Shown: piece after piece, positions 2,215 to 64,000 of the stretch
How the letters are laid out: each line of letters begins with the position of its first letter
Position numbering within the stretch: the stretch's first letter is position 1
IMG/VR virus record: IMGVR_UViG_3300029258_001230
From: an uncultured virus (IMG/VR IMGVR_UViG_3300029258_001230)
Lineage: Duplodnaviria; Heunggongvirae; Uroviricota; Caudoviricetes
Direction: 5' to 3' (one strand)
DNA: 64,000 nt
Notes under the pieces: model-generated
What the model saw: only the letters and a program-made list of their open reading frames with translations
Told to the model about the DNA's origin: nothing
Database searches by the model: none
Translations under genes and position numbers: made by a program

Positions 2215-2273
2215 CGAGTAGTGTATGTAGTCGGATTTTTCCGATAGGAAAATATGCGACATACATACTGTTA
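2212..2273 (+). repeat. attC-like hairpin
   Basis: TAAC...GTGTATGTAGTCG...CGACATACATAC...GTTA with inner hairpin TTTTCCGATAGGAAAA. Confidence 0.8.
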
Positions 2274-2614
2274 GGTTTAGTTTTTAAATTAAATTAAATT
2301 AAAATAAAATATATGAGAGAATTTACTTGTGCAATGGGTGAAGTTGTTGATTTAGATAATGATAAAACATACAACCATTTACCTAAAACTGCTAAAGAAT
2401 TAGATAAATTAATGTTCGCTGAAATAGGTATGGCATTAGTTTACACTAAATATTTCTATCCCGATTGGGATAAGAAACAATGCTATAGGATACATAAATT
2501 AATAGAAGGTTTTGCTAAAGAAAGAAAAAATAACTACGGCAACGTAAAATGGTTGAGAGAGCAAGTGTTTATTTTTCAAGACGAAACTGAAAATATGTGC
2601 TAATTAAACCTAAC
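2270..2614 (+). mobile_element. Integron-like gene cassette carrying ORF 2313-2603
   Basis: Begins GTTAGGTTTA and ends TAAACCTAAC (10/10 complementary); one ORF inside. Confidence 0.75.
2313..2603 (+). CDS. hypothetical cassette protein
   Basis: 96-aa ORF filling the cassette. Confidence 0.75.
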   Translation: MREFTCAMGEVVDLDNDKTYNHLPKTAKELDKLMFAEIGMALVYTKYFYPDWDKKQCYRIHKLIEGFAKERKNNYGNVKWLREQVFIFQDETENMC

Positions 2615-3350: not shown

Positions 3351-3776
3351 ATGAACCAGAAAACTCATAAAAAGTGCAAATCTTGTGGTAAAGATTTTCG
3401 GTTGTTTAAGACTACGGACAAGTTCTGTTCGTTTAAATGTGTTCCAGATAAGGAAATTCAAAAAAGAACAATAAACAAGGTGTCGAATAAACAGAAGGAA
3501 TTTGATTCAGAATACGAAAAGAATAGAAAGGCATTAATCAAAGAGATTTTTGATAAAAACGGGAAAATCATTTGTGAAAGATGTTATACTGATAAGTCAA
3601 TAATGTTTTCCACTCATCACATAATGTTTAGAAGTGAATATCCAAGGCATCCAATGTTACATAGCAGGGATAATTTAATTCATTTGTGTTATGATTGCCA
3701 TGAGTATTATCACGATAAGAAGAGTAATAGAGATAGTTTAGTAAAAGAGAGAGGTTTAATTGAAAAGTTCAAGTAA
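3351..3776 (+). CDS. HNH endonuclease (NinG-like) with N-terminal zinc finger
   Basis: CKSC...CSFKC; CERC...STHH...NLIHLCYDCH. Confidence 0.8.
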   Translation: MNQKTHKKCKSCGKDFRLFKTTDKFCSFKCVPDKEIQKRTINKVSNKQKEFDSEYEKNRKALIKEIFDKNGKIICERCYTDKSIMFSTHHIMFRSEYPRHPMLHSRDNLIHLCYDCHEYYHDKKSNRDSLVKERGLIEKFK

Positions 3777-3970: not shown

Positions 3971-4150
3971 ATGGTTGATCCAAAGAATAGAAAGTCTGAT
4001 TACGTTTGCATTGATTGTGGAGTTAAGTATTTGCATGAAAGTCAAAAGAGCAAAAAACAGTCTGTAACTTTCTTCATGGATGAATGTGGTATTTGCTCTA
4101 ATTTCAAACCTGTTACACATATAAGAGTGTATAACTATTTAATTAAATAA
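3971..4150 (+). CDS. small zinc-finger protein (not in ORF track)
   Basis: Manual translation MVDPKNRKSDYVCIDC...ECGIC..., 59 aa. Confidence 0.65.
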   Translation: MVDPKNRKSDYVCIDCGVKYLHESQKSKKQSVTFFMDECGICSNFKPVTHIRVYNYLIK

Positions 4151-4158
4151 TAAAAAAA

Positions 4159-4674
4159 ATGAAAAACCAAAAGCATCACATATATTTCAAAGAATGTACT
4201 CAGGAGTTCATTACTCTTCCGATAAATACGCCTAACTGTTATTATCTAGGAGAGTTTACTTTTAAAGAACTAGACAATCTTCATGATCTTGTCGAGTCAA
4301 AACCTATATCTTATAATGATTTATTAAAACACATAAACAATAACTCGGTGTCTCCAGTGATAAGTAAAGTAGACGAAATAAGAAAACAAGCAGAATCCTT
4401 TTACAGAAATAAATACCCAAAAGTGAATGAGTTAAGTTTCTCAGATAATCTTATTATTGATATAATGACAGATTTTATGTACAAACACAAAGTTAAATTT
4501 AATAAAGTTGATTTAGATGATGTTATACCTATAATGGATAAGATAGATAAGTGTATTAGCGATGAATTAGAATATTCAGCAGGTTACACAGAAGAAGAAA
4601 TGGCTAAAATATCTGATGCAGTAGAAAGGATTAAAGATGTTGCAGATGAAAATTGGATGCTTGTCAGGAATTAG
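4159..4674 (+). CDS. hypothetical protein, possibly a fusion across a cassette junction
   Basis: 171-aa ORF; internal GTTATACCT at 4522 pairs with AGGCATAAC at 4673. Confidence 0.65.
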   Translation: MKNQKHHIYFKECTQEFITLPINTPNCYYLGEFTFKELDNLHDLVESKPISYNDLLKHINNNSVSPVISKVDEIRKQAESFYRNKYPKVNELSFSDNLIIDIMTDFMYKHKVKFNKVDLDDVIPIMDKIDKCISDELEYSAGYTEEEMAKISDAVERIKDVADENWMLVRN

Positions 4675-4677
4675 GCA

Positions 4678-4738
4678 TAACGTATGGTAATATGGTTAAG
4701 CGATAGCGACCCGATAGGGTTAACTATATTACGTGTTG
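4678..4738 (+). repeat. attC-like hairpin
   Basis: TAAC...GTAATATGGTTAA...TTAACTATATTAC...GTTG. Confidence 0.8.
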
Positions 4739-4840
4739 TACACTGTATGGCGACTTAACAGAACGAAACTTAAATCGAAGCACAGAAGTAGTATTTATTT
4801 TTTGTGCGGTGGTAAATATTAATTTGAAAAATTAAAACTT

Positions 4841-5461
4841 ATGACAAAATTTAGATTAAAAAAAGAATACCATGAATCAGTTAAAGAACTATTTCACGAT
4901 GACTATGCAAATAAAATAATTAACCTAAAAGAAAGCCAAGAGTTTTTTGTAGATAGAGGATTTCCTTTAGATAAAATTGAGAAGGTTAAAGAGATTACAC
5001 CGATTGAAGAATTGATAAATGTTCTTAGTATCCGATTCAAAGAAGTTGCTAACAATAATGCTATTGATAAAGAATACTGGATTGAAAAAGCAAATAAATT
5101 TAGGTGCGATTCGATTATAGATATACTTAGAGTATTTGTGGATTATGTAAATAAAAAACAACCTTCTTACGGGCATATTCCAGATGAGTGGATAAGAGAT
5201 TTTGCAGTAGAAGATAATGGTGAAATAGTTTATAAAAGTAGTGGCGATGATTATAGTAAAGGGCTAGATGATGGGATAGAGTATGCACGTAGTTTGAATC
5301 CTAAAAAAGCATGGGATATTATATATGATAGCCTACCAAGTTATCAAACAATTCATGAGTTATTAGAAGGAGAAGAATTGACAAGGAAGGAGTTTACATC
5401 TTTTATTGATGGTGCTAAATGGTTTAGAGATTATTTACAAGAACAAATTATAAAGGAGTAG
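4841..5461 (+). CDS. hypothetical cassette protein
   Basis: 206-aa ORF with a FIDGAKW motif typical of small phage proteins. Confidence 0.75.
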   Translation: MTKFRLKKEYHESVKELFHDDYANKIINLKESQEFFVDRGFPLDKIEKVKEITPIEELINVLSIRFKEVANNNAIDKEYWIEKANKFRCDSIIDILRVFVDYVNKKQPSYGHIPDEWIRDFAVEDNGEIVYKSSGDDYSKGLDDGIEYARSLNPKKAWDIIYDSLPSYQTIHELLEGEELTRKEFTSFIDGAKWFRDYLQEQIIKE

Positions 5462-5463
5462 TT

Positions 5464-5751
5464 ATGGAAAATAAAATTAGATGGGTAGCAGAAGCGTATA
5501 ATAAGGATGCTTATCAATGGAATGTAACACCAGAAAGACTATTAAACGAAGAGGTAGAAAGATTGTCTAAAAACTCTTCAATAAAGGAAATTAAACTTGA
5601 AGATGCTACTGATATAGGCGATGACTTAGTAAAAGTTTACAGAGGCTATAACTATAACGGAGAATTGATTTATCAATGGCTCGCTAATAGTGTTAATGTT
5701 GGATATTTTACTAATGAAATGACAAAAGATTATGAACGAAAAGAATTATAA
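5464..5751 (+). CDS. hypothetical cassette protein
   Basis: 95-aa ORF in operon. Confidence 0.7.
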   Translation: MENKIRWVAEAYNKDAYQWNVTPERLLNEEVERLSKNSSIKEIKLEDATDIGDDLVKVYRGYNYNGELIYQWLANSVNVGYFTNEMTKDYERKEL

Positions 5752-6031
5752 AAACTACTTAGACAATATTGTAACTGAATGTTTTAATAATCATTTGAGT
5801 TCTTTAGAATGGGATGAAAATGACCCAATTCAAAAAGCTATGTATTTAAGATTGCATGATGCTTCAAAACAGCTTTTAAGAAAAATGAAAGCAAAAGTAA
5901 TTAATACTTCACATTGCAAAATTGATGCTTATGCTGATGATGATTGGTGTAATAATTATCAAAGTAGAGTTAATTGTGATGGTTGTAATTTCTGTTTAAC
6001 AAGTGGTTGTTCGGAAATTCCGAACTCATAA
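5732..6031 (+). CDS. hypothetical Cys-rich cassette protein
   Basis: C-terminal WC...CDGCNFC...C. Confidence 0.7.
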   Translation: MNEKNYKNYLDNIVTECFNNHLSSLEWDENDPIQKAMYLRLHDASKQLLRKMKAKVINTSHCKIDAYADDDWCNNYQSRVNCDGCNFCLTSGCSEIPNS

Positions 6032-6111
6032 AAAGCGAGGGGAAGAAAAAATAAATACGGTATGATTAGCACCAACTTTGATACGAGAACGGAACTAAGC
6101 CATATTGTGTA

Positions 6112-6203
6112 CAACAGATTACGGCTATGAATTGAAGCCGTATAACAAATGATTGATTCAAAGAAATAACCTTAACAACGGCTTTTATTTATAGCCATTG
6201 TTA
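6112..6203 (+). repeat. attC-like hairpin
   Basis: CAAC...GGCTATGAATTGAAGCCG...CGGCTTTTATTTATAGCC...GTTA. Confidence 0.8.
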
Positions 6204-6385
6204 GCAACTTTTAAAATTATGGATGACGAAATAACAATAAACCTAAGAGCCTTAACTGAGCGACAAAGAAATAACCTTGCAAAGGTATTAGACCAAGCCT
6301 TGAATGATATTGAAGATGAAACCAACGAAGTAGCATTAGAAACCCTACAAAAATTTGTAGAGGAATAATTTTTATTGTTGCTAAC
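6200..6385 (+). mobile_element. Minimal gene cassette carrying a 49-aa ORF
   Basis: GTTAGCAAC...GTTGCTAAC (9/9 complementary). Confidence 0.75.
6219..6368 (+). CDS. small acidic cassette protein (not in ORF track)
   Basis: MDDEITINLRALTERQRNNLAKVLDQALNDIEDETNEVALETLQKFVEE. Confidence 0.65.
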   Translation: MDDEITINLRALTERQRNNLAKVLDQALNDIEDETNEVALETLQKFVEE

Positions 6386-6462
6386 ACCGAAATAACCTCC
6401 GTTTTAATGGAGGGTTATGTGGTGTTATGAGCCGTTGCGATAGCTAATGGCGTTTTCTTTTT
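6382..6462 (+). repeat. Conserved attC-like double-hairpin repeat, copy 3
   Basis: TAACACCGAAATAACCTCC...GGAGGGTTATGTGGTGTTA plus GCCGTTGCGATAGCTAATGGC and T-tract. Confidence 0.9.
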
Positions 6463-6504
6463 AAGAATTAATCACTATATTTAATCACACAAACAAAACA
6501 ATAC

Positions 6505-6657
6505 ATGATTTTAGAAGAAGCAATAAAGATTTTAGATAATCACCAAAAGTGGAGAAGAGGCGAAATAGAAGATTGGGTTTCTACCCCTAAAGAGTTAGGA
6601 GAGGCTATTGATTTGATTCTCACAACCCTCAAAAACAATAACCAACAGGAGGGATAG
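6505..6657 (+). CDS. small phage protein (not in ORF track)
   Basis: MILEEAIKILDNHQKWRRG...PKELGEAID, 50 aa, after a CACAAAC leader. Confidence 0.7.
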   Translation: MILEEAIKILDNHQKWRRGEIEDWVSTPKELGEAIDLILTTLKNNNQQEG

Positions 6658-6658
6658 C

Positions 6659-7309
6659 ATGAAAGAACTACTAAGAAGTATATATCTTTACAATAAAACC
6701 TACTATAAGGTTTGGGTTCATATTTGGGTGTTCTCAGATTCAAAAAACGTATTTGATTTTACTTATTCGGAACTATCTTCCGTTTTGGGTATTCCAGAAA
6801 CAACAATAAGAAGAGCTATTGATAAGATATTCAGAGCATGGAATGATGATGGCAGAACTTTAGTAGAATTTGAAAAATCAGAAAACGGATCAAATCAAAT
6901 TAAATTATATCCAAAAGGAAAGCCTAAGTCTAAGTTTTATGAAATTCACGATGAAATGTTCGATTGGGTTAAAGTTTGGTATAAAAAGAATGATTATGAC
7001 TATTTAGAAATCGGGAGACATAAAAAGTATATTCGATTAATATCAGACAAGATTAAGAAGTCAATGATTGAAAGAACAAATCAAGAGCCAAACGATGAGG
7101 GTGTATTGAATAGCTTTCAACTGTTTTTTGAGAACATTCCCGATTGGTGGATTAATCAAGGTCAGGCTACTTTGAATAAAGTAAATAAGAATTACGATAC
7201 TATATTGAATCAAATAAAATCTAAAAATGGAAAAAAACGAGATAGCTACCAAAAGTCAAGTGAGCAAGTTGGAGAAGTCGATTTTACCAAGCTTACCGAG
7301 AACGACTAA
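6659..7309 (+). CDS. putative replication initiator (N-terminal HTH)
   Basis: FTYSELSSVLGIPETTIRRAI HTH; overlaps the downstream gene as in O/P-like pairs. Confidence 0.55.
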   Translation: MKELLRSIYLYNKTYYKVWVHIWVFSDSKNVFDFTYSELSSVLGIPETTIRRAIDKIFRAWNDDGRTLVEFEKSENGSNQIKLYPKGKPKSKFYEIHDEMFDWVKVWYKKNDYDYLEIGRHKKYIRLISDKIKKSMIERTNQEPNDEGVLNSFQLFFENIPDWWINQGQATLNKVNKNYDTILNQIKSKNGKKRDSYQKSSEQVGEVDFTKLTEND

Positions 7310-8036
7310 TAAGATAATCGAAACTCACAGAACGCATAAAAAAGTAAAGGACTTTTCCGAATCTGATTTTGCAGGTCTTTACAAAAGTCTTTTGGCTATA
7401 TGTAAATTGGTTGGGATAAAGGACGCTCCAGACAATTCTGTAATGCTTCTTCTTTTAGAACACATTAAAGTTCATCATATAGATTTTTCAACAAAGGAAA
7501 TTGAAATAGCTTTTAGTATGGCTTCGGCAGGTAAGTTGGATTTTGACTTCGAGCCTTACAACAAGATGACTCCTCAATTAATATCCAAAACTTTAAACTC
7601 ATATAAAGAAAAAAGGAATAAAAGCCTAGTTGAAGTATCAAGACAAATAGATAAAGCCAATCGGGAGAAAGTAAACAGTTCCGTTAAAACTAATGACTCA
7701 ATGGCTATTGATTATATTGTTTCCGTTTATGAAAAGTATAAAAAAGAACAAGAAAAATCAGAGCCAGACCATGCCGTTTACAGAGATTGGGGAAATAAGA
7801 TTTACCATTTTTTAGACATGAAGGGCATTGTATCGTTCTCGAAAGATAAAAAGAAAGACGCTATGGAACGTGCAAAAGCAATCGTTTCTAAAGAGCAGTT
7901 TGAATCAGATGTTAGGTATAGCTTTGAGAAATCAGATAATAAAACAGTTGTAGAAGCAAAGAACTTATTAGTTCAGGAGTGGTTTAAGAACGCTTGCGAA
8001 ATGGATGTTAACATTCGGGAGTTGATAAAGTTGTAG
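7227..8036 (+). CDS. putative replication accessory or helicase-loader-like protein
   Basis: Follows the initiator; EIEIAFSMASAGKLD segment resembles Bacteroidota phage replication proteins. Confidence 0.45.
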   Translation: MEKNEIATKSQVSKLEKSILPSLPRTTNKIIETHRTHKKVKDFSESDFAGLYKSLLAICKLVGIKDAPDNSVMLLLLEHIKVHHIDFSTKEIEIAFSMASAGKLDFDFEPYNKMTPQLISKTLNSYKEKRNKSLVEVSRQIDKANREKVNSSVKTNDSMAIDYIVSVYEKYKKEQEKSEPDHAVYRDWGNKIYHFLDMKGIVSFSKDKKKDAMERAKAIVSKEQFESDVRYSFEKSDNKTVVEAKNLLVQEWFKNACEMDVNIRELIKL

Positions 8037-8099
8037 TATTTTTTTTGCGAAAACGCAACGATATTACTATATTTACACAATAATAAAACACACAAACAC

Positions 8100-8312
8100 A
8101 TGATTAATTTAAGTATTGAAGACTCTTTAAGCGAGTTAAAGCAAATCAACATTGAGATTGATAAACTAAACACAGAAATCAATGCAAAAGGTCTTGATTC
8201 TCCAGAGCAAAAAGTTAATGCGAAGCATGATATTTTAAGATTGGGTAGCCTTTTAAAAGATAAAGAGTTTTTGAACTATTGTTTAACCTATTTACTTACA
8301 AACAATGGATGA
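8100..8312 (+). CDS. hypothetical protein
   Basis: 70-aa ORF directly after CACAAACAC. Confidence 0.65.
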   Translation: MINLSIEDSLSELKQINIEIDKLNTEINAKGLDSPEQKVNAKHDILRLGSLLKDKEFLNYCLTYLLTNNG

Positions 8313-8433
8313 AGAAGAATTAGTGTCAGAAATGATCGTTGAATTAGCTGGTGAGTATTTGGAAGTAGATAGTAGTCAGCTAAAATACTTAAAGAAAGAA
8401 ATAAAGACTGAGTTAGTCGATAGCGATAGTTAA
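8305..8433 (+). CDS. small acidic protein (not in ORF track)
   Basis: MDEEELVSEM...DSDS, 42 aa; stop is the TAA of TAAC at 8431. Confidence 0.55.
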   Translation: MDEEELVSEMIVELAGEYLEVDSSQLKYLKKEIKTELVDSDS

Positions 8434-8476
8434 CGATAAAGCTAACGGCTTTTTTAATTGCCGTTAGGATGTGTTA
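8431..8476 (+). repeat. short attC-like hairpin
   Basis: TAAC...CTAACGGC...GCCGTTAG...GTTA. Confidence 0.75.
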
Positions 8477-9251
8477 GCCACAGTTTTATTAAAAAAAATA
8501 AAAAATAGAATTATGAAATATATGGGAAGTAAAAATAGGTTTGCAAAAGAATTGCTACCTATAATTTTAAAAGACAGAAAACCTAATCAATGGTATGTTG
8601 AGCCATTTGCAGGAGGTATGAATATTATTGATAAAGTAAATGGTAATAGAATTGCAAATGACAATAACAAGTATTTAATAGCCTTATGGAAAGGAATACA
8701 GACTAATGAAAGCAGACCAACCGAAATAAGCAAAGAATTTTATAGTGATGTAAGAGATTGTTTTAATGGTAAAAACTCTAAATATAATGACTTCACAATA
8801 GGTTGGGTTGGTTTTATGGGTAGTGCAAACGGACGTTTCTTTGAGGGTGGTTATAGCGGAAAGTCAAATACCAAAAACGGAATAGTAAGAGATTATATTG
8901 CAGAAAGTATTCGCAATATAGAAAAGCAAATACCAAACTTAAAAGATATTGATTTTAGATGTAATGATTATAGAGAATTAGAAATACCTAAAAACAGTAT
9001 TATATATTGTGATATACCTTATGAGGGAACTAAACAATACTCGACAAGTAAAGGCTTTAATCATAAGCATTTTTGGGATTGGGTAAGAAGTACTACACTT
9101 AAAGGACATAAAGTGTTTGTAAGCGAATACAAAGCACCGAATGACTTTGAATGTGTTTGGGAAAAACAAGCAAAAAGTAGTTTAAGTGCCAACGGTAAAA
9201 TTGGAGGTAATAAAGTAAGCACAGAGAAACTGTTTGTTTATTGTGGCTAAC
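8473..9251 (+). mobile_element. Gene cassette carrying a Dam-like methyltransferase
   Basis: GTTAGCCAC...GTGGCTAAC (9/9); gene stop lies inside the terminal TAAC. Confidence 0.75.
8513..9250 (+). CDS. D12-class (Dam-like) N6-adenine DNA methyltransferase
   Basis: MKYMGSK, YVEPFAGG (motif I), YCDIPY (DPPY-like motif IV); likely start is ATG at 8513. Confidence 0.9.
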   Translation: MKYMGSKNRFAKELLPIILKDRKPNQWYVEPFAGGMNIIDKVNGNRIANDNNKYLIALWKGIQTNESRPTEISKEFYSDVRDCFNGKNSKYNDFTIGWVGFMGSANGRFFEGGYSGKSNTKNGIVRDYIAESIRNIEKQIPNLKDIDFRCNDYRELEIPKNSIIYCDIPYEGTKQYSTSKGFNHKHFWDWVRSTTLKGHKVFVSEYKAPNDFECVWEKQAKSSLSANGKIGGNKVSTEKLFVYCG

Positions 9252-9328
9252 ACCGAAATAACCATCGTTCGCAGAATGATGAGTTATGGAGTGTTAAAGA
9301 GCGTTCCGAAGGAAATGCGAACTATTTT
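9248..9328 (+). repeat. Conserved attC-like double-hairpin repeat, copy 4
   Basis: TAACACCGAAATAACCATC...GATGAGTTATGGAGTGTTA plus GCGTTCCGAAGGAAATGCG. Confidence 0.9.
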
Positions 9329-9352
9329 AGAAATTTTAAAATTAAATATAAA

Positions 9353-9892
9353 ATGAACTGGAAAGATTATAAACAAGAAGCAAAAAGAACATGGGCTAAC
9401 TTTAGCGAGATCCATAAGATTGAAAACGGAGATTTAGACAGAAGAATGGCTTTACTTCACTGCGTATTAGGTATTGAAACTGAGATTAACGAGTACAAAA
9501 AAGCTATCATCAATAATGATGAAGTAAATGCAAAAGAAGAGATTGGTGATGCGTATTGGTATTTGGCTAATTACGAATTGAGGTTTGATATACCTATAAT
9601 GAGTAAGTCCGACCTCAAAGGAGGAAGTTTGGATGATTGTGTAGAAACTGTTTTAGATTTGAGTAAAAAAGTTGTTTTCTATAAAAGTGATAAGTTTTGG
9701 GGAGAAGTTGATTTATGTATGGGGTCTATTCTTTATTATTTAGAAGATGTTGTTATGTCCAGAAGATATGATAAAGCAAGTATTTTACAAACTAACATAA
9801 ATAAACTAAAGTCTAGGTTTCCGAATAAATTCACTACTAAAGATGCTGATGAAAGAGATTTAGACAATGAAAGAAAAATACTAGAGCAATGA
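9353..9892 (+). CDS. MazG-like nucleotide pyrophosphohydrolase
   Basis: YKQEAKRT, LGIETEINE, KEEIGDAYWY, NINKLKSRFPNKF. Confidence 0.85.
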   Translation: MNWKDYKQEAKRTWANFSEIHKIENGDLDRRMALLHCVLGIETEINEYKKAIINNDEVNAKEEIGDAYWYLANYELRFDIPIMSKSDLKGGSLDDCVETVLDLSKKVVFYKSDKFWGEVDLCMGSILYYLEDVVMSRRYDKASILQTNINKLKSRFPNKFTTKDADERDLDNERKILEQ

Positions 9893-10725
9893 GATTAATT
9901 TCACAAAGTTTAATCAAGTCATTGAACAAATACATTAATGGTAAGCAATGCGGTTTAAAATTAAAAGCTCAATACGTAGATGGTATTGAGTTTGAACCGT
10001 CTGACGCTATGCGTTTAGGTCAATGGTTTGAATATAAGTGTACGGGTCAGAAAACTAAATTCGGTCATACTCCAGTTCCCGACAGATTAAAACCCAAAAA
10101 GCTAACAAAAGCACAAAAAGAAGCAGGGTTGAAACAAGAAGATATAGTTGGAGAGCTATCAAAGAAGTATCAAGATGCTTTAATTCAGGTGGAAGCTTTC
10201 CATAAAATGCTTAAAGCAGAAAAACTAACTATCATATCCACGGGTACTAGATTGAAGGATGATGAGTTCGGAATAAGTGGAGATGTAGATATTGTAGCTC
10301 AGAGAGAGGGAGACGATAAGCTAATCTTTATTGATACAAAGTATTCAGGATTACTTGAAAATAAATATGATGATTTAGGATGGCACTATGACTCTTTAGA
10401 GTATAAGCATGATATAATGATCCAATCAGTACAATATAAGTTATTAGGTATTCAGAACTATGGTTATGAGCCTGATTTTTACTTCTGGGTATTTTCAAGC
10501 ACAAATCCAAATGCCAGAAAGAGCATAAAAGTAGAGGTCAGCGAGGATCGTTTTAAGACACATATCAAAGATGTTTTTCAAGCAAGAAAGATATTTGAAC
10601 AAAATTTAAAACACGGATTCAAACCGTACCCATCACCAGACGGATGTGCTTCATGTCCTTTGAAGGAGACTTGCGAACATTTTACAGAAGTGCCAATAGT
10701 TCACACAGTGTATTATGGAAATTAA
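9889..10725 (+). CDS. PD-(D/E)XK Cas4/RecB-like exonuclease
   Basis: ISGDVDIV...FIDTK, QSVQY, C-terminal CASCPLKETC. Confidence 0.8.
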   Translation: MRLISQSLIKSLNKYINGKQCGLKLKAQYVDGIEFEPSDAMRLGQWFEYKCTGQKTKFGHTPVPDRLKPKKLTKAQKEAGLKQEDIVGELSKKYQDALIQVEAFHKMLKAEKLTIISTGTRLKDDEFGISGDVDIVAQREGDDKLIFIDTKYSGLLENKYDDLGWHYDSLEYKHDIMIQSVQYKLLGIQNYGYEPDFYFWVFSSTNPNARKSIKVEVSEDRFKTHIKDVFQARKIFEQNLKHGFKPYPSPDGCASCPLKETCEHFTEVPIVHTVYYGN

Positions 10726-10740
10726 AAACACACAAACACA

Positions 10741-11424
10741 ATGAGAGATTTAAAAAAAATCAAAGAAGAAATAAAAGATATGGCTACTATGGATTTAGAT
10801 ACGGCTATGTCTTGTTTTTACGTCCTTATGGATAACGGCAAACCTTACACGGGAATATCTGTCAGGTTCTCTGAATTAGTTGCTTATTGTTGGGGAGGGT
10901 TGGAAATTGGAACTCGGATTATAAGTAATGACGGTAAAAATATAGTTGTTGGGGCTGAATTATTGGATAAGGAAAAGGATTCAAAGTATAGCTTGGAGCT
11001 TACTCGATCGGTGGTTGGAATAAATGGTAGACCAATTTCAGGAGAAAAACTAGTTAATATAAGCACAACGCTTAGTTCTATTGCTTACAGGAATATCGTT
11101 TTTAAAGCGATACCCTCAATGGTTCTAAAGAAAGTAACCGAAGAGATTCAGGAGTTTATCAAGGACAATATTTCAGATTCAACAGCAATGAAAGATTGTA
11201 TCGACTTCTTTGTTTCCAAAAACGTTTCTAAAAACAAGATTGCTTCAAAGTTAGGGTTAGACTCATTAAGTGATATTGATAGTGAAAAAGCTTTTAGACT
11301 TATCGGGATGAAAAACGCAGTCGAAAGTAATGATACTACCGTTCACGAGTTATTTGGAAAGGATAAAGGTGTTTTTGAAACAGATGACAGTTTAGAAATT
11401 CCAGAGTTTAATTACAAAAAATGA
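10741..11424 (+). CDS. putative single-strand annealing/recombination protein
   Basis: Adjacent to the exonuclease; GISVRFSE resembles the GPSIRLAE motif of phage recombination proteins. Confidence 0.5.
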   Translation: MRDLKKIKEEIKDMATMDLDTAMSCFYVLMDNGKPYTGISVRFSELVAYCWGGLEIGTRIISNDGKNIVVGAELLDKEKDSKYSLELTRSVVGINGRPISGEKLVNISTTLSSIAYRNIVFKAIPSMVLKKVTEEIQEFIKDNISDSTAMKDCIDFFVSKNVSKNKIASKLGLDSLSDIDSEKAFRLIGMKNAVESNDTTVHELFGKDKGVFETDDSLEIPEFNYKK

Positions 11425-11523
11425 TATAAACATCACCTTGTTAGCAAATTAGAATGAGTAGAAGTTGTTTTTTAGCTTCTACTTTTCTATTTTTAGAGGA
11501 CACAAACACAAAAAAGTAAAATT

Positions 11524-11859
11524 ATGAGCAAGTATTACAACACTACAAATGCCTACGGAGATTTATTGAAAGACTACGAAGCAAGAGCAATTAGTCAAGA
11601 CGAAGTGGTTATAGGGGTTTTTAGAATCTACAAAAAACCATTATCCCCATCAATGATTTTAGAGTTATCGGGAATGAATTGTCCTCTGACCTCGGTTAGA
11701 AGAAGTATGACTAATCTAACAAGAGAAGGAAAGTTGGAAAAGACAGACACTAAGGTTAATGGTATTTATGATAGACCAGAATATCTATGGAAACTTCTAA
11801 AGAAAAAGGTTGCTAAAAATAAAGGAAAAGAAATTCAAGGGAAATTAGATTTAAACTAG
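11524..11859 (+). CDS. winged-HTH DNA-binding protein
   Basis: LTSVRRSMTNLTREGKLEKT...YLWK. Confidence 0.65.
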   Translation: MSKYYNTTNAYGDLLKDYEARAISQDEVVIGVFRIYKKPLSPSMILELSGMNCPLTSVRRSMTNLTREGKLEKTDTKVNGIYDRPEYLWKLLKKKVAKNKGKEIQGKLDLN

Positions 11860-11863
11860 ACTT

Positions 11864-12082
11864 ATGCGTTTAAGTGATGAACAACTGAATTACCCTAGTA
11901 ACACAGGTTTTGTTTGTTGTGTGGTATTAGAGAAAATGGACTTGGGGTGGATGGAACTTGAGGATGGGTCTAAATGTATGCCTTACATTAAGGGTAGTTC
12001 GGATAGTGATATGTATCGAGTAAATAACTGCCCTTCTTGTGGTAAGTATGTACGTGATGCAGTAATTAAATTACAAAGATAA
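11864..12082 (+). CDS. small zinc-ribbon protein
   Basis: CC...NNCPSCG. Confidence 0.6.
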   Translation: MRLSDEQLNYPSNTGFVCCVVLEKMDLGWMELEDGSKCMPYIKGSSDSDMYRVNNCPSCGKYVRDAVIKLQR

Positions 12083-12103
12083 ATCGAAAAATCATTAAAT
12101 AAA

Positions 12104-12412
12104 ATGGAACAAGAAAAGATTAGATATAGTGACGTAATGGATTTAGGCTTTAAAGAAGAAATCGGCAATGATAGTACCTACTTTAAAAAATACGGTTTTG
12201 ATTACGCTATTATAACAAAGTACTTAACTAAGAAGATTTACCTTGACTGGGCTAAAGAAACGCAACTTTGTGAAATGGTAAGGATTGATAGCCCTAAAAA
12301 CTGCAATATAAAAGCCAAATTGCCAATACGGAACTTGGAGCATTTAAAAGAGGTAGTCAACTTCTTTTCTGATGAAGAGGTAAATGAAGTTGATTATACA
12401 AAGTTTGCTTAA
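12104..12412 (+). CDS. hypothetical protein
   Basis: 102-aa ORF. Confidence 0.7.
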   Translation: MEQEKIRYSDVMDLGFKEEIGNDSTYFKKYGFDYAIITKYLTKKIYLDWAKETQLCEMVRIDSPKNCNIKAKLPIRNLEHLKEVVNFFSDEEVNEVDYTKFA

Positions 12413-12456
12413 TAAAGGTAAAGCATAAGCGTAGTATAGATAGTAAAAATGAAAAT

Positions 12457-12774
12457 ATGCCAAAAATATTTGAGTATCTAGGAATAATCATTAGGTTTTA
12501 TTCCAATGAGCATGATCCTATTCATGTTCACGCCATTTATCAAGATGCAGAAGTCAAAATTTCTTTCTTTTTTAAAGAAGGTCGTCTTTACAGAACCACT
12601 TACAAAGTTGAAAAAGGGAAATTCCCCCCTGCAAAAATGAAAGCACTTAAAAAGTTCGTTTCTATTTACAATTTGAAAATTGTTCACAGATGGAACGAGT
12701 ATTTTATTTTTAAAGTAAGTCCAAAATTTGAAAAAATCACCAAAAAGTTGAGCAATGAAGATAGATACAATTAA
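12457..12774 (+). CDS. DUF4160-family protein (putative toxin)
   Basis: MPKIFEYLGIIIRFYSNEHDPIHVHA...WNEYF. Confidence 0.8.
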   Translation: MPKIFEYLGIIIRFYSNEHDPIHVHAIYQDAEVKISFFFKEGRLYRTTYKVEKGKFPPAKMKALKKFVSIYNLKIVHRWNEYFIFKVSPKFEKITKKLSNEDRYN

Positions 12775-13003
12775 ACACCTAAAAGACCATCAGTTAGAAT
12801 TAGGTTTTAGCGATGGAACGTCAAAGGTTATTGATCTAGGTAACTTCATAAAATCGAGTAACCATCCATTGATAAAGAAGTATGCTGATATTGAACTATT
12901 CAAGCAAGTATATTTAGATGAAACAGGCACTCCTTGTTGGGGGAACAATGAATTTGACATTAGTCCAAAAAGTATAATTAAAGGCGATTTTGATATTACT
13001 TAA
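12755..13003 (+). CDS. DUF2442-family protein (putative antitoxin)
   Basis: LELGFSDGTSKVIDL...FKQVYLDETGTPCWGNNEFDISP; overlaps the DUF4160 gene. Confidence 0.8.
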   Translation: MKIDTIKHLKDHQLELGFSDGTSKVIDLGNFIKSSNHPLIKKYADIELFKQVYLDETGTPCWGNNEFDISPKSIIKGDFDIT

Positions 13004-13126
13004 CGGATTATAATAAATACAGTAGCGATATGGAAGATGAAATAAAACAGATTTGCACAGAATTAAATGATGGACAAATAGCGGTTGTACAAGCAACAGA
13101 AAAGCTATTGGATTTATTTAATGTTA
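13001..13126 (+). repeat. attC-like hairpin with a long coding loop
   Basis: TAAC...AATAAATACAGTAGC...GCTATTGGATTTATT...GTTA. Confidence 0.7.
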
Positions 13127-13206
13127 GTAATTCAAAATGTAAATGGATGAAGATTAACGGAGTTTACAAAAAGGAATGTAAAATAAAATACACTGAAAAA
13201 GAATAA
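13030..13206 (+). CDS. small protein starting inside the attC-like loop (not in ORF track)
   Basis: MEDEIKQICTEL...KLLDLFNVSNSKC...EKE, 58 aa. Confidence 0.55.
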   Translation: MEDEIKQICTELNDGQIAVVQATEKLLDLFNVSNSKCKWMKINGVYKKECKIKYTEKE

Positions 13207-13213
13207 TTATTAC

Positions 13214-13272
13214 TAAAGGACGAGTATATGCGAAGTGCTGACGATAGGAAGCATTGCGTATATACATTGTTG
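13214..13272 (+). repeat. attC-like hairpin with degenerate left core (TAAA)
   Basis: GTATATGCGAAGTGCT...AGCATTGCGTATATAC...GTTG. Confidence 0.7.
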
Positions 13273-14213
13273 TACACTGTATGGCGACTTATTAGCACTA
13301 ACCTTCAATCAAAGCACTAAACAGAAAAACAAAAAGAAAAAAGCGATGGCAAAAATAAATTTAGACAAGTATTACACATCAAAAGAACTTGCAAAGCATT
13401 GTATTGATGTAGTAAATAAATTGGGATTAGAAATAACTGAAACCATTGAGCCAAGTGCAGGAAATGGAAGTTTTAGTTTACAGATACCGAATTGTATTGC
13501 GTATGATTTGGAACCTGAACACGAAAGTATTATTAAACAAGACTTTCTAAAACTTGAATTGCCTTATAAAAGTGGAAGGTTGTTTATTGGAAACCCCCCA
13601 TTTGGAACAAGGAATACATTAAGTGTACGATTTTACAAACAAGCAATTAGAATGGGTGATTATATTGCTTTTATACTACCTGTAAGCCAATATAAAAACA
13701 ACCAACAAATGTATGAGTTTGACTTAATTCATTCGGAAGTATTGCCACTGATTGAATATAGTGGAATTAAACTATTGTGTTGCTTTAATGTATATAAAAG
13801 ACCTGAGAATGGAGTGAATACAAAAGCAATAGATTATAAGCTAAAAGATGTATTTGTTGGCGAATATAGAAGAGGTGGAACTTATAAAAAACCTGAAACT
13901 TTTGATTTTGCTATGAACACCTATGGGGCAAGTATTGGGAAAGAAGTTCTTGAAATAGGGACATTTTGCCAAGAAAATTATGTGATTATTAAAAATGAAA
14001 TGCACCGAGAAAGGATTTTAGAAGTGATGAGAAAAACTGACTGGAAGAATTTATATCCGTTTATTTCTAAACCTAAAATACAGACTTGGAAGATTTATAA
14101 GTATTTAAAAGAACAAATACCTGAATTGAAATAAAGAATTGCGGTGGCTTTTTTTGTTTTTCCTTCACATAACTTTCAAACGAAGAACGAACCTAAGCCA
14201 TATTGTGTACAAC
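13269..14213 (+). mobile_element. Gene cassette carrying an N6-adenine methyltransferase; same ends as 4735-6115
   Basis: GTTGTACACTGTATGGCGACTTA...CTAAGCCATATTGTGTACAAC. Confidence 0.8.
13346..14134 (+). CDS. N6-adenine DNA methyltransferase
   Basis: DKYYTS, IEPSAGNGSF, IGNPPFG; likely start is ATG at 13346. Confidence 0.85.
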   Translation: MAKINLDKYYTSKELAKHCIDVVNKLGLEITETIEPSAGNGSFSLQIPNCIAYDLEPEHESIIKQDFLKLELPYKSGRLFIGNPPFGTRNTLSVRFYKQAIRMGDYIAFILPVSQYKNNQQMYEFDLIHSEVLPLIEYSGIKLLCCFNVYKRPENGVNTKAIDYKLKDVFVGEYRRGGTYKKPETFDFAMNTYGASIGKEVLEIGTFCQENYVIIKNEMHRERILEVMRKTDWKNLYPFISKPKIQTWKIYKYLKEQIPELK

Positions 14214-14294
14214 ACCGTTATAACCTCCGTGCGAAGTCATGGAGGGTTATGTGGTGTTATGAGCCGTTGCGTAGCTAATGGCGTTTTCTTTTTT
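14210..14294 (+). repeat. Conserved attC-like double-hairpin repeat, copy 5
   Basis: CAACACCGTTATAACCTCC...GGAGGGTTATGTGGTGTTA plus GCCGTTGCGTAGCTAATGGC and T-tract. Confidence 0.9.
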
Positions 14295-14310
14295 AAAATA
14301 CATATAGTTA

Positions 14311-14348
14311 AAAAGCCCCAATTACGAGCGTAAGAGGGGCTTTTCTTT
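14311..14348. terminator. probable bidirectional intrinsic terminator
   Basis: AAAAGCCCC...GGGGCTTTTCTTT between convergent transcription units. Confidence 0.6.
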
Positions 14349-14402
14349 GATCTTTCGATCCACACAAACACAATACGAAGAACTCGCATCGCTTCAAATA
14401 TA

Positions 14403-14963
14403 CTAAATTACTGTAAAATAACCTTTCTCTGGAATAGTGATGTTATCAACAATGAACCTGATTTGTTTAAGGTTGAAGTTATCCACTTCAACTGCTCCTT
14501 CTCCGAATGTTTGTCTAGCTTCTTGAATTAAAGCATCTTTAGTCCATCTACGTCCTAAAGCTTTCTTTCTAAAAGTGTCAATTGTATCGAAGTCAATTTT
14601 AGATTCTGATTGATCGGATTTACCTTCTCCTGTAAGGATATTAAGTCTATCGTACACGATTTTAGGAACTTCAAGATGGCTTCCACTATCTTCTACGAAA
14701 TCAACTTTAGATAAGTCGTTTGTTACGTAGTAAATGTGAAGAGGGTTCTTTCTTTCTCTTCCTGACTTTGTTTTAGTAATTACTTTTTCAGCTCTAACGG
14801 CTACTGATTGAGTCATTCCCTCAATTAAAGTATAAAGCTTAACTCCTCCAATTTCTTTTTCTAATTGGTTGATTACTTTTTTAATTGTAGCTGGTTTGTC
14901 ATTTTCATTGACTTTGATTAAAGGATACTTTTCAAGTTCCTTTTCCCATTCTGCATTTGGCAT
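14403..14963 (-). CDS. hypothetical protein, paralog of the C-terminal domain of 15516-17969
   Basis: KYPLI...TKSG...YY...VPKIVYDRLNI shared with 15516-17969. Confidence 0.75.
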   Translation of the reverse strand: MPNAEWEKELEKYPLIKVNENDKPATIKKVINQLEKEIGGVKLYTLIEGMTQSVAVRAEKVITKTKSGRERKNPLHIYYVTNDLSKVDFVEDSGSHLEVPKIVYDRLNILTGEGKSDQSESKIDFDTIDTFRKKALGRRWTKDALIQEARQTFGEGAVEVDNFNLKQIRFIVDNITIPEKGYFTVI

Positions 14964-15012
14964 AATTATATTGTTTATGATTAATAATGGTGCTAATTTA
15001 CAAAAAACAAAG

Positions 15013-20351: not shown

Positions 20352-22505
20352 ATGAAGGTAGATATAGGTGATATAGTGAAAGTTGGGATAGGTTCAGATT
20401 TTCACTATGGTTATATAGAAAGTACAGATAGTGGTTTTCCGAATTACTTGCCTAACTATGTTAAAGTTAGTGGTATAGGAGATGCTATTGAAATTGATAA
20501 AGTAGAGAAAGTAAAGGCAGGAGAGGTGATTGAGTTAGATTACACGGAAATAACACCTTTGTCTACTCAATTATCAAGAATAACAGGGGATTCATGGACG
20601 GCTAAAAACTTTTCATCTTTAGGGGGTGATGAGCCTGATTCGGATGAATTGTTTATTCACACTAAAAGCAGGGTTAGATTTAAAACGCCTAGTAAACTGT
20701 GGAATAAAATAGATGGGTATAACTTGTACGTTGAAGATGAATTAATAAAGACGGCTAAAACGAATAAACCAATCGCTTCTGTTAAGGATGGAGAGTTAGA
20801 TTTTTCAATATTGGCGGACGGGATATATATTGATAAAGGAGAGGTTAAGAAAAAATACTTGTCAGGGGAAATACCATTTAACACTTCTGATAAGATTAGA
20901 TCAATAATCGGGGTTTCGCCAAAAGAAGACAGAGCAGAGGTTGAAGCTTTAGCGAGTGATGTTATTAAAGCTACCGTTGAAGAAGATGGTTCTTTGATTA
21001 CTTTTGATTCTATTAGCGATATTGTTGACAATGGTAGAGAATGGTTAGTTGATTTTGATGTTACCGTTAAAAGTGATGAAACAGTAAGTAAGGAAGTTAT
21101 AAGCCTTACTATAAATGATATGCACGAAGTATTGTCTGGAGGTGATTTTGATAGTCCAGAATATTTTGAATTAGGTGGTGAGTTGGATGATTCTAAGTAT
21201 GAGTCGTACAGGGATGATGTGATAAGACACTCTGAATACTTTGAGGCAGGAAATGGGTATAATTCTAGTTTTGATGGAGCTACAAATAAAGACGGGCATA
21301 AAACTAATGGTGAATATATTATAGAAGACAATAATATATTTTGGGTTTATACTGATGGAAAAGGTGAAGAATACAGCTCTAATGAGCAACCAAATTTTAG
21401 AGTAGATTTTGGTTCTTTAGTAGTAAAAGAAAATTATAAAGAAGGCGGTTCTATAAACTCTAAATTCATAGACTATGTATTAAAGTTCTACGGAAAACAA
21501 GGAGATAGTCAAGACAAAAAGAAACTTTTTGGTTCTGGAATAGAAGCTTATGAAGTTGAAGAAGCTGAAAAAGAGTTAAGATCCAAAAATAATTGGGGCG
21601 ATGGAGATTCGCTAGATAGAAAAAGAGCTAGAGATTTAATTTTAGAAAACCGAATTAAAAGACTAGAGGAATTGATTAAGGCTGATGACAAGGATATTAA
21701 AGAGCATTCTAGTATAGTTGGAGGTAAAACACCGAAAGAGATTAAGGAGTTAGCGAAAAAGACTGTTGAAAGCCTTGAATCGGAAAGATTGAATCAAGCG
21801 ATTATGGGACAAGGGGTAGATGCAGTTGCGCAAGAAAAAAAAGGCAAGGATGTGTATGATAACACGTTTTACCATTGGCACAATATATCTTTTGAAGGAG
21901 ATGAAGATGTATATGCTTATCCGACCCCAAAAGGAACAATAGTTTATGGGGAAGATGTTTCAGGAGAAAGGGAAAAACCATTTGGTACAAATTTTTCAAA
22001 AAGTCCTTTCTATTTAGAAACACAGCCTGATGAAGAGTATGACTTTGATTCTTTAGAAGAGTCTAAAAATAAAGCCTTAGAAATTATTGAAGAAAAAGGC
22101 TTAAATGAAAAAGGTTCTAAAAAGGATTTAAAGAAAGCTGATAAATCAAAGTACGACTTATTTATAAACGGGAAAACTTGGCATTACGGGGTTAACATCA
22201 AGGACGGTAAAGTAGATTACGATACTTTTAAAGGAAAAGATTTAGAATTTAAGTCAAGTAAAAAAGGAATTGAAGTATCTAAGTTACCTAAGTCAATAAG
22301 ATCAAAAGTTGAAGATTATTTATCTAAAGACGGAAATTCGGGTGATGATAATAAGGAGGTTTTAGAGGAAATTGAAATTCAACTAGAGGTGTTAACTGAT
22401 TTAAAGAACGATTTAAACCCTAAGTCAAAAGACGATAAAGATGTGTTGGAAGAAATTGAAATCCAACTAGAGGTATTAACTGATTTGAAAAACGATTTAA
22501 AATAA
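20352..22505 (+). CDS. large acidic multidomain protein (putative internal virion protein)
   Basis: 717 aa; FELGGEL and YKEGGSI motifs; C-terminal duplicated helix. Confidence 0.7.
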   Translation: MKVDIGDIVKVGIGSDFHYGYIESTDSGFPNYLPNYVKVSGIGDAIEIDKVEKVKAGEVIELDYTEITPLSTQLSRITGDSWTAKNFSSLGGDEPDSDELFIHTKSRVRFKTPSKLWNKIDGYNLYVEDELIKTAKTNKPIASVKDGELDFSILADGIYIDKGEVKKKYLSGEIPFNTSDKIRSIIGVSPKEDRAEVEALASDVIKATVEEDGSLITFDSISDIVDNGREWLVDFDVTVKSDETVSKEVISLTINDMHEVLSGGDFDSPEYFELGGELDDSKYESYRDDVIRHSEYFEAGNGYNSSFDGATNKDGHKTNGEYIIEDNNIFWVYTDGKGEEYSSNEQPNFRVDFGSLVVKENYKEGGSINSKFIDYVLKFYGKQGDSQDKKKLFGSGIEAYEVEEAEKELRSKNNWGDGDSLDRKRARDLILENRIKRLEELIKADDKDIKEHSSIVGGKTPKEIKELAKKTVESLESERLNQAIMGQGVDAVAQEKKGKDVYDNTFYHWHNISFEGDEDVYAYPTPKGTIVYGEDVSGEREKPFGTNFSKSPFYLETQPDEEYDFDSLEESKNKALEIIEEKGLNEKGSKKDLKKADKSKYDLFINGKTWHYGVNIKDGKVDYDTFKGKDLEFKSSKKGIEVSKLPKSIRSKVEDYLSKDGNSGDDNKEVLEEIEIQLEVLTDLKNDLNPKSKDDKDVLEEIEIQLEVLTDLKNDLK
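22343..22502 (+). repeat. intragenic duplication encoding VLEEIEIQLEVLTDLKNDL twice
   Basis: Two copies visible in protein and DNA, with synonymous differences. Confidence 0.85.
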
Positions 22506-55876: not shown

Positions 55877-55887
55877 ACCGAATAAAC

Positions 55888-57089: not shown

Positions 57090-57094
57090 ACAAT

Positions 57095-58468: not shown

Positions 58469-58595
58469 TAACGGTTACTTGTATGAGTATTAGCCGATTA
58501 GAAATTACAGAAGTATCGAATTGAAAATTAACTTAATAAATAGTAATAGCTTTAAAAACAAGCACTGCAACGGCTATTGCTTATACAAATTGTTG
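58469..58595 (+). repeat. attC-like hairpin
   Basis: TAAC...TTGTATGAGTATTAGCCG...CGGCTATTGCTTATACAA...GTTG. Confidence 0.8.
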
Positions 58596-59000: not shown

Positions 59001-59012
59001 TAAATCAAATCA

Positions 59013-61592: not shown

Positions 61593-61616
61593 AAAAAACA
61601 CACAAATACTAAAATT

Positions 61617-63856: not shown

Positions 63857-63979
63857 CGTATAGTGGTATGGTGTCGTAGCGGATTAGAACGCACGAACCT
63901 TTGAATAATAACAGAACTTAATAAATAGAATAAATGATTGACTTAAACGAAAAACCGCTATGCACTATACCACGTGTTA
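63854..63979 (+). repeat. attC-like hairpin
   Basis: TAAC...GTGGTATGGTGTCGTAGCGG...CCGCTATGCACTATACCAC...GTTA. Confidence 0.8.
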
Positions 63980-64000
63980 CAGGCAGTACGGGTATAAATG

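Follow-up and report, generated by a model that had tools for sequence, protein, structure and literature searches.

What are two stretches of one phage genome that share their ends yet enclose unrelated genes, and how do such units reach the genomes in which they are found? We examined this question in a 64,000-nucleotide stretch from an uncultured virus of the Caudoviricetes (IMG/VR record IMGVR_UViG_3300029258_001230), referred to here as the window, whose DNA is phage-like, with 33% G+C, open reading frames (ORFs) almost all on the + strand and few recognisable families by Pfam or PHROGs. An initial annotation, made from the letters alone, had described two cassettes at 4735-6115 and 13269-14213 with a common nested inverted-repeat shell. 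We found that the shell recurs around many other genes, that its borders coincide with the points at which whole units have been gained or lost, and that it is one variant of a broader rule by which a short sequence at the start of a cassette is matched by its own inverted copy at the end. These observations lead us to suggest that both stretches may be plug-in gene cassettes of marine Flavobacteriia phages.

The shared ends were present as described. The left end GTTGTACACTGTATGGCGACTTA lies at 4735-4757 and 13269-13291 and the right end CTAAGCCATATTGTGTACAAC at 6095-6115 and 14193-14213, neither has a third site in the window at up to three mismatches, and two matches were reached in 0 of 100 shuffles for either. 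Direct reading also confirmed the inner inverted pairs, GTATTTATTTTTT (4791-4803) with AAAAAATAAATAC (6046-6058) in cassette 1 and GAAAAACAAAAAG (13324-13336) with CTTTTTTTGTTTTTC (14148-14162) in cassette 2. The parts of the two cassettes are as follows.

4679..4737, + strand: leader hairpin H of cassette 1, AAC...stem-loop...GTT, whose closing GTT forms the first three bases of the cassette.
4735..4757, + strand: left outer end of cassette 1, made up of the box GTTGTACAC, TG and TATGGC.
4791..4803, + strand: left inner inverted repeat of cassette 1, from which the conserved leader runs on (4804-4840) up to the ATG.
4841..6031, + strand: cargo of cassette 1, three ORFs of 206, 95 and 99 amino acids (aa) without assigned function.
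6032..6115, + strand: right shell of cassette 1, with AAAAGCGAGGGGAAG, the inner repeat (6046-6058), a spacer, and CTAAGCCATATT plus the anti-box GTGTACAAC (6095-6115).
13222..13271, + strand: leader hairpin H of cassette 2, with the loop GACGATAGGA.
13269..14213, + strand: cassette 2, with left end 13269-13291, inner repeat 13324-13336, a putative N6-adenine methyltransferase gene 13346-14134, inner repeat 14148-14162 and right end 14193-14213.

The shell is not confined to these two cargos. Scanning public viral, metagenome and metagenome-assembled genome (MAG) contigs with the core of the ends, and counting lone matches in unrelated coding sequence as chance, yielded at least 21 distinct complete cassettes of 627-1381 nucleotides (nt) in which left and right ends are paired, the window's two included. 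The same ends surround about 11 cargo types, which bears out the proposal of a reusable carrier with unrelated cargo. Our comparative loci, given L numbers, were fetched by the GTTGTACAC pattern or by two hairpin loop words, and frequencies among them are biased accordingly. Pfam was run on 20 ORFs of 18 cassettes (L120 and L035, which repeat the cargo of L003 and L011, were left out), and 15 of the 18 carry DNA-modification families: C5 cytosine methyltransferase PF00145 in five cassettes, one of them split by a frameshift, N6_N4 methyltransferase PF01555 in five, D12/Dam methyltransferase PF02086 in three and Mom PF25680 in two. No Pfam family was found in the other three (L186, L001 and cassette 2). 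At least five unrelated families of DNA-modifying enzyme are placed in the GTTGTACAC backbone, and the carried modification genes probably help the phage to evade host restriction.

The window's own cargo agrees with its first description. The ORFs of cassette 1 (4841-5461, 5464-5751 and 5732-6031) belong to no Pfam or PHROG family and form a mosaic, with homologues of ORF1 in L001 and L097 and of ORF3 in L006 and L113. The 206-aa protein has only close, unnamed relatives (26 matches, 43-91% identity), its AlphaFold model is of low confidence (mean predicted local distance difference test score 56.7), and a comparison with the protein atlas gave no usable match. The 262-aa protein of cassette 2 (13346-14134) matches PHROG DNA-methyltransferase families (phrog_799, 7e-11; phrog_5172, 1e-26) and has an NPPF motif; no Pfam family was above threshold, and a Protein Data Bank sequence search gave one weak match (E 0.008).

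Genes neighbouring the cassettes are phage genes (terminase, replication, RusA, ParB-like), often with more methyltransferases. The MAG labels and a match to Polaribacter phages, described below, indicate that the hosts are Flavobacteriia. On a Flavobacteriaceae MAG contig (L083/L084), a phage integrase gene and bacterial genes (NUDIX, trpF-like) are the immediate neighbours of a GTTGTACAC cassette that carries an N6_N4 methyltransferase, and this position at a prophage edge indicates that the family also occurs in temperate phages.

We then compared the shells part by part. The outer repeat consists of nine matching bases (GTTGTACAC), two positions that never match and six matching bases (TATGGC); on the + strand the non-matching positions read TG on the left and TT on the right, which gives a G.T wobble. 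The left side continues with about 38 nt of spacer, the inner repeat (10-19 nt), GWGCGKTGGCAAA and a short stretch of leader to the ATG, and the right side starts directly after the stop codon with a AAAAGCGAGGGAAG-like sequence, followed by the inner repeat, a spacer, a stop (TAA/TAG) and the outer repeat. The conserved leader of the GTTGTACAC shell measures about 105 nt, up to the ATG, and the conserved trailer about 85 nt, beginning just 3' of the stop or itself providing it. The inner repeat varies between shells and matches within each cassette. It exists in six or seven versions, among them GTATTTATTTTTT, GTAATAATATTTTT, AGAATTTTTAAAAGCCTTA, GAAAAACAAAAA, CTTTTTCTTTTCTTTTTT and ATAGCTTGTG, the last of which, in L186, is formed by the coding sequence.

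The inner repeat had been proposed as an exchange site, and this part of the proposal is not supported. Cassettes with the same shell and different cargo stay alike beyond the inner repeat, to the ATG on the left and to about 12 nt after the stop on the right; cargo is therefore replaced ORF for ORF and not at the inner repeat, and exchange is visible at the outer boundaries instead of the inner ones. The loose repeats reported from the spacers are better described as weak direct repeats, since the mean local alignment score over 21 cassettes was 9.8 for direct, 5.9 for inverted and 6.8 for shuffled comparisons (3 of 21 above every shuffle); left and right spacers are not inverted repeats of each other. 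Spacer-like sequence does also occur, as had been said, in the loops of two hairpins at 58470-58594 and 63857-63977. These earlier 'attC-like loops' have 20-bp stems, loops of about 75 nt and the common word AACTTAATAAATAG, and each is followed by a GTT box.

Two further traits of the shell were seen where it meets the cargo. In several cassettes the ORF runs through the right shell to a fixed stop codon, which gives similar tails to unrelated enzymes: in nine loci with unrelated methyltransferase families (L025, L050, L083, L093, L011, L042, L145, L238 and L242), a K/E-rich stretch is followed by ...TLFNAQT, ...HEPSIKTGT or ...PTLFNELN. The shared tails might act as a functional peptide or might be a mere by-product of read-through. 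In L143, L117, L158, L220 and L242 (about 5355-5375), small hairpins with the loop GACGATAGGA or GACGTTAGGA are placed 10-20 nt ahead of the likely start codon of the cargo, or across it, where they may serve translation control.

A gene flanked by inverted repeats recalls an inverton, in which a recombinase flips the DNA between the repeats and so switches the gene on or off, and methyltransferase and specificity genes are known inverton cargo according to the portions available of two papers (PMC7672463, PMC9881135). Of all the explanations discussed here we give this one the least credence. The left-type end always lies beside a hairpin, the TG/AA asymmetry of the outer repeat never changes sides in the 21 cassettes, no copy inverted relative to its flanks was seen, and no invertase was found.

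The initial annotation had overlooked both a hairpin that precedes the shell and a more general rule, of which the shell is one variant. A stem-loop closed by AAC...GTT stands before every left end, and the cassette begins with the three bases of that GTT. Two words are found repeatedly in the loops, CGTTTTAATG in 35 distinct hairpins and a GACGATAGGA-like word in 23, together on 38 distinct 5' stem sequences. The leader hairpin of cassette 1 also stands 5' of cassettes with other cargo in L001, L003 and L160, and its loop word is present in other stems in 10 viral contigs; the leader hairpin of cassette 2 stands 5' of at least seven other cassette types. The same hairpins also lead other boxes, and every such box recurs in inverted form at its gene's 3' end. 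For the box types B1, B2, B3, B4 and B6, the order on the left is GTT with six variable bases (N6), (A/T)G and 3-6 bases; on the right it is a stop, 3-6 bases, TT, N6 in reverse complement and AAC.

Scanning the window with this rule gave 12 box/anti-box pairs on the + strand, compared with a mean of 1.13 (maximum 5) in shuffles and with two on the - strand. Five of the 12 lie in hairpin context: cassettes 1 (4735-6115) and 2 (13269-14213), and three further units, listed here with a cassette start that is cut by the end of the window.

2270..2614, + strand: cassette with box GTTAGGTTT, a 96-aa ORF (2313-2603) and TAA-TT-AAACCTAAC, with a hairpin on each side.
6200..6385, + strand: small cassette with box GTTAGCAAC, a 49-aa ORF and TT-GTTGCTAAC, followed 3' by an AACACCG hairpin.
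8473..9251, + strand: cassette with box GTTAGCCAC and a Dam (D12) methyltransferase gene, whose stop lies within the anti-box GTGGCTAAC.
63857..64000, + strand: cassette start, a long hairpin with a spacer-like loop and then the box GTTACAGGC at 63975; this box is present with its own anti-box in L238.

Of 117 candidate pairs over the whole set of loci, 45 follow a hairpin of -12 kcal/mol or lower, and these contain 24 box words. Nineteen were judged real by our own reading of their context, and the other five are A/T-rich or in unrelated loci. In the resulting set of about 19 box words, each with a matching anti-box, AAC and GTT never vary and position 4 holds a purine in every case. To assess complementarity independently of pairing, we defined left sites by context alone and permuted the boxes among sites, with the following results.

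All 130 sites: own anti-box downstream in 24, permuted mean 4.09 (maximum 11); own anti-box upstream in 1.
107 sites, excluding GTTGTACAC: own anti-box downstream in 12, permuted mean 0.89 (maximum 4).
The same 107 sites with one mismatch allowed: own anti-box downstream in 31, permuted mean 8.64 (maximum 15).

The complementarity of box and anti-box is real, directional and cassette-specific. Two simpler scans were abandoned: a generic search for AAC...GTT hairpins did not discriminate (73 on the + strand, 56-76 in five shuffles), and a plain search for inverted 9-mers without the TT rule was uninformative.

Complementary ends that lie on one strand raise the possibility that the shell acts in RNA. 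The 5' and 3' ends of the cistron RNA would pair, box with anti-box and inner repeat with inner repeat, and together with the flanking hairpins would form a module for processing, stability or translation control that spreads by homologous recombination. A parallel exists in the processing stems that flank ribosomal RNAs. Several features fit such a panhandle. The cassettes are all co-oriented with their ORF, and the rule holds in the window on the + strand only. In 14 of the 19 box types the sole conserved non-Watson-Crick position is a coding-strand G opposite T, which would be G.U in RNA and A.C on the other strand. The stop codon is fixed just 5' of the stem, the borders of the shell resemble those of untranslated regions, exactly at the ATG and after the stop, and in L186 the inner pairing involves coding sequence. 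The loops CGTTTTAATG and GACGATAGGA are kept over at least 20 different stems, as in protein-bound RNA hairpins, and a shell common to phages without shared proteins implies that a host factor must read it. The wobble, the fixed stop, the UTR-like borders (UTR, untranslated region) and the conserved loops all indicate end-to-end folding of the + strand, whether as RNA or as single-stranded DNA, and they make the panhandle a strong rival or an additional function. As an account of the cassettes we nevertheless regard it as possible and not as probable. Rfam gave no family at gathering score over the window, with a single chance-level match (E 0.75) in 4600-6500; the outer stems are just 14-17 bp long; and the anti-box is missing from most hairpin-led genes. 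Box words B1 and B2 differ at five of six positions although their spacers are about 75% alike, and this is easier to explain if a contiguous anti-box, hairpin and box are replaced together, as they would be in a circle, than by stepwise compensatory mutation. A panhandle alone also leaves the sharp AAC/GTT breakpoints in the DNA, described next, unexplained.

Cassette 1 shares hairpin and shell with L001, L003 and L160, and neither blastn nor tblastx shows any similarity in the flanks. A copy of cassette 2 in L156 has 98% identity to it up to ...GTGTACAAC and is unrelated immediately 3' of that point, where the right flank differs. The window, two complete cassette-bearing viral genomes and phage P12002L have just three protein clusters in common (E 1e-5), one of which is the Dam methyltransferase cargo; the shell has thus spread among unrelated phages, and a phage protein that they all have in common could not be its recombinase. 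Within the collection of phages, only the Polaribacter phages P12002L and P12002S match the left end and leader of the window (75.8% over 114 nt, 5' of a methyltransferase gene), and a megablast of window positions 4000-15000 against phage records gave no match.

The methyltransferase region of P12002L and P12002S has the same architecture as the window cassettes, and a comparison of the two genomes shows one unit present in one and absent from the other. Their flanks are 99.5% identical up to ...GGTAAC. At this point P12002S has an extra unit of about 0.9 kb, a hairpin plus a methyltransferase cassette that ends in ...GCTAAC, inserted at a junction of AAC with GT. Both genomes resume 3' of it with the same hairpin and cassette, the junctions share AACGT, and identity breaks off again after the common cassette, between ...CAAC and G. 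A homologue of the extra methyltransferase gene sits at another position of the P12002L array (L242 5391-6188, compared with L243 3673-4463); the two are 88% identical at both ends with an unrelated middle, a pattern that a swap of the target-recognition part would produce. Phages with nearly no common proteins gain and lose whole units, which move from one to another with breakpoints exactly at the AAC/GTT junctions.

The window is represented in four DNA sequencing runs, which may be its source samples, and in no RNA run among those listed; the contigs of the four runs break at shell ends and hairpins. Three joints were listed, with short sides of 24-40 letters. One of them, from 6112 to 6383 (runs X3 and X4, side 26), sets a right end straight onto an AACACCG hairpin, and its origin may be another phage. 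Relatives of the flanking proteins, sought as a way to an empty site, were absent for 4159-4674 and limited to one weak partial match for 14403-14963.

Sharp ends, 17-nt terminal inverted repeats and many copies in unrelated contexts would also suit a non-autonomous transposon, similar to a miniature inverted-repeat transposable element with passenger genes, whose ends are cut by a transposase acting in trans. Several observations make this very improbable. The 21 cassettes show no consistent target-site duplication, and no transposase was found in the cargo or the neighbouring genes or in common among the phages. The ends overlap the closing GTT/AAC of the adjoining hairpins. Moreover, the terminal words vary by cassette type yet stay self-complementary, which a single transposase would not tolerate.

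In their geometry the cassettes resemble those of integrons. Integron attC sites are imperfect hairpins bounded by AAC/GTT, often with a stop codon in the AAC core; they stand in co-oriented arrays and are conserved at the AAC/GTT triplets and at a purine in position 4. The hairpins of the window might accordingly be attC sites of true integron cassettes, moved by an integron integrase of the host. Conservation here is likewise limited to the AAC/GTT triplets and the position-4 purine. The hairpins are bounded by AAC/GTT, the stop codon lies in or beside AAC, and, with exceptions, the 5' GTT core of a cassette and the AAC core that follows its own ORF are complementary. When the cores were compared with GTTRRRY, from the consensus RYYYAAC / GTTRRRY quoted in the available text of PMC9892861, GTTGTAC agreed at 6/7, GTTACCT at 5/7 and GTTAGGT at 7/7 positions.

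A published case bears directly on this possibility. Qi et al. (2023) described a cluster of attC sites lacking integron integrases (CALIN) in the virulent phage P12002L, with two predicted attC sites and two methyltransferases (PMC9892861). According to the portions of that paper available, the attC1 hairpin, TGCTAAC...GTTAGGC, was called by HattCI only and not by Infernal, whereas the neighbouring attC2 was called by both programs and was recombined by the integrase IntI1 between G and TTAGGC. We located the attC1 primer sequence in L242, where it is the AAC...GTT hairpin between two methyltransferase cassettes. The attC2 site is on the other strand, and its GTTAGGC core is the anti-box of the last cassette. 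The published CALIN and the window cassettes are the same element family, as far as the available text of that study allows the comparison, and they share orphan DNA methyltransferase cargo and the absence of an integrase. That text covers two predicted sites in one phage; box/anti-box complementarity, the nested-repeat shell, ORF-precise borders, the spread of the family and the difference between P12002L and P12002S do not figure in it. The available part of the P12002L/S genome paper makes no mention of hairpins or repeats in this sense (PMC4615864), and we found no description of this shell in the open-access full-text literature.

True integron cassettes are nevertheless an improbable explanation. 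No integron integrase was found in the phages, the MAGs or the likely host family (the last of these a weak result, as specified below), and the hairpin-type site was the one that Infernal did not call. An attC site would stand at the 3' end of the ORF, and right ends here are followed by differing hairpins or by none; the moving unit has its hairpin 5' of the ORF; both borders of similarity lie at box edges; and no hairpin strictly travels with a cassette. The complementarity of 14-17 nt, the second, inner pair and the partial fit of the cores to GTTRRRY are further differences from integrons. For want of an IntI, and given a 5' hairpin in the moving unit and no hairpin strictly tied to a cassette, we do not file these elements as integron cassettes.

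Two other systems are worth comparing. The pdif modules of Acinetobacter plasmids hold diverse cargo between short, inversely oriented sites in many contexts, and those sites are 28-bp XerC/D sites of one consensus; as pdif modules are commonly described, the cassettes differ from them in their varying, covarying terminal words and their adjoining hairpins. Nearer still are the promoter early stem-loop (PeSL) elements of T4-type phages (Arbiol et al. 2010, PMC2839356; Comeau et al. 2014, PMC4122927), which, in the available parts of these papers, combine a sigma-70 promoter and a terminator, form direct repeats and have been proposed to move through a circular intermediate. As those parts describe them, they are small conserved stem-loop motifs between non-essential genes that act as exchange points between unrelated sequences and mark insertions and deletions in close relatives. 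Copies of the hairpins likewise flank variable genes and mark such breakpoints, both between P12002L and P12002S and between the window cassettes and L001, L003, L160 and L156. A stem-loop is present; a search by eye of the shell for a Bacteroidetes-type promoter found no convincing one, the fit of the spacing being inconsistent. The cassettes differ from PeSL, as described there, in their self-complementary ends, in the nested second repeat of the methyltransferase shells and in belonging to unrelated hosts and phages. By analogy, and on the text available, PeSL elements are the closest functional analogue.

Taken together, the evidence favours, with a probability of roughly one half, the reading that both stretches are plug-in gene cassettes widespread in marine Flavobacteriia phages, exchanged in an integron-like or PeSL-like manner, with the shell as an expression adaptor. 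The unit would consist of an AAC...GTT leader hairpin, a box (GTT plus six variable bases), a 5' leader, one or a few ORFs, a stop and an anti-box (TT, the reverse complement of the six bases, AAC). Exchange would take place by recombination between the hairpin and AAC/GTT junctions that all units have in common, and in an intermediate circle the anti-box, hairpin and box would form one long attC-like hairpin. The enzyme would not be encoded by the phage: either general or micro-homology recombination, as for the T4-type PeSL, or a site-specific enzyme of the host might act. The shell would double as an expression adaptor whose ends pair on the + strand, as its borders with the cargo at the ATG and just after the stop codon suggest, and the cargo would serve escape from host restriction. 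More tentative than the panhandle is a stronger form of this proposal, an integrase-independent, integron-like gene-capture system of marine Flavobacteriia phages in which a split, cassette-specific site closes round the leader hairpin on circularisation and is read by a host function, the shell expressing any ORF as an anti-restriction gene. A nicking enzyme, such as a nearby HNH endonuclease, could stimulate exchange. An HNH endonuclease gene lies at 3351-3776 (PHROG families, best E 5.5e-9), about 1 kb 5' of cassette 1, and an annotated HNH homing endonuclease also adjoins the P12002L methyltransferase array (L242 7724-8114). The idea of a mimic of CRISPR (clustered regularly interspaced short palindromic repeats) repeats was considered and dropped.

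A number of results weigh against the cassette reading. The search for a mobilising enzyme was negative: neither Pfam nor PHROGs identified a tyrosine recombinase or integrase in the window, none of five phage records with cassettes, of which three are complete genomes, had a PF00589 match, and the integron integrase model TIGR02249 reached its curated cut-off in 0 of 4 MAGs and in 0 of 201 genomes of the host family of one MAG, the latter a weak result because the control matched in no genome. One prophage copy (L084) lies next to an ordinary phage integrase. Intermediates were also missing. No empty shell occurs among the matches listed, the shortest left-to-right distance in the 21 cassettes being 627 nt; the four DNA runs contain no clean empty site and no circle; and a search of the assembled loci for a circle or tandem junction (anti-box, hairpin, own box) gave none for the GTTGTACAC class and two generic matches that are one palindromic place. 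The rule has exceptions as well. About three quarters of the sites with a hairpin and GTT have no exact anti-box within 3 kb, the cassette type called C in P12002L and X in P12002S has non-complementary ends, the left end of L016 is decayed, and L050, L029 and L158 contain uncompensated changes. The unit by which P12002L and P12002S differ takes the upstream hairpin with it, whereas it is the downstream hairpin that would go with a canonical integron cassette. In the available text of PMC9892861, the hairpin-type attC1 gave no verified IntI1 recombinants. Finally, the cargo statistics describe the GTTGTACAC class only.

Other repeats and genes of the window are recorded here for completeness. 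The first is a repeat family of about 100 nt with seven copies in the window, in each of which an AACACCG...GGTGTT hairpin is followed by another that has a T run and resembles a terminator. The AAC with which a copy opens often also closes the anti-box of the cassette before it, and GGCTAAC contains the upstream ORF's stop codon.

14211..14299, + strand: AACACCG-type hairpin that begins with the last AAC of cassette 2, then a terminator-like hairpin with a T run.
470-576, 2611-2704, 6371-6471, 9237-9342, 14199-14299, 58908-59008 and 61512-61606: copies of the AACACCG repeat of about 100 nt in the window.

A second modification cluster lies at 54834-57736, with an S-adenosylmethionine-dependent methyltransferase, two glycosyltransferase-like ORFs and a DNA methyltransferase-like ORF, and no GTTGTACAC shell was seen there. 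Two sets of direct repeats lie within large ORFs, one of 146 nt at 24306-24451 and 25113-25258 (90% identical, 807 nt apart) and one of 67 nt at 22351-22501 (87% identical, 84 nt apart); they are probably repeated protein domains.

Phages need constant change of their anti-restriction genes, and how these genes are swapped so rapidly is poorly understood. The cassettes described here provide a unit that is defined by sequence, has sharp borders and can be recognised by a rule. The published attC-like sites of P12002L belong to a far larger structured family that is seemingly independent of an integron integrase, and the approximately 19 cassette-specific versions of complementary ends would represent a split recombination site of a new kind or else a new kind of module for pairing mRNA ends. 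Because two cultured, closely related phages of a culturable Polaribacter differ by one unit, cassette exchange can be tested directly at the bench. The conserved shell could also serve to find new anti-defence genes, for example the three ORFs of cassette 1.

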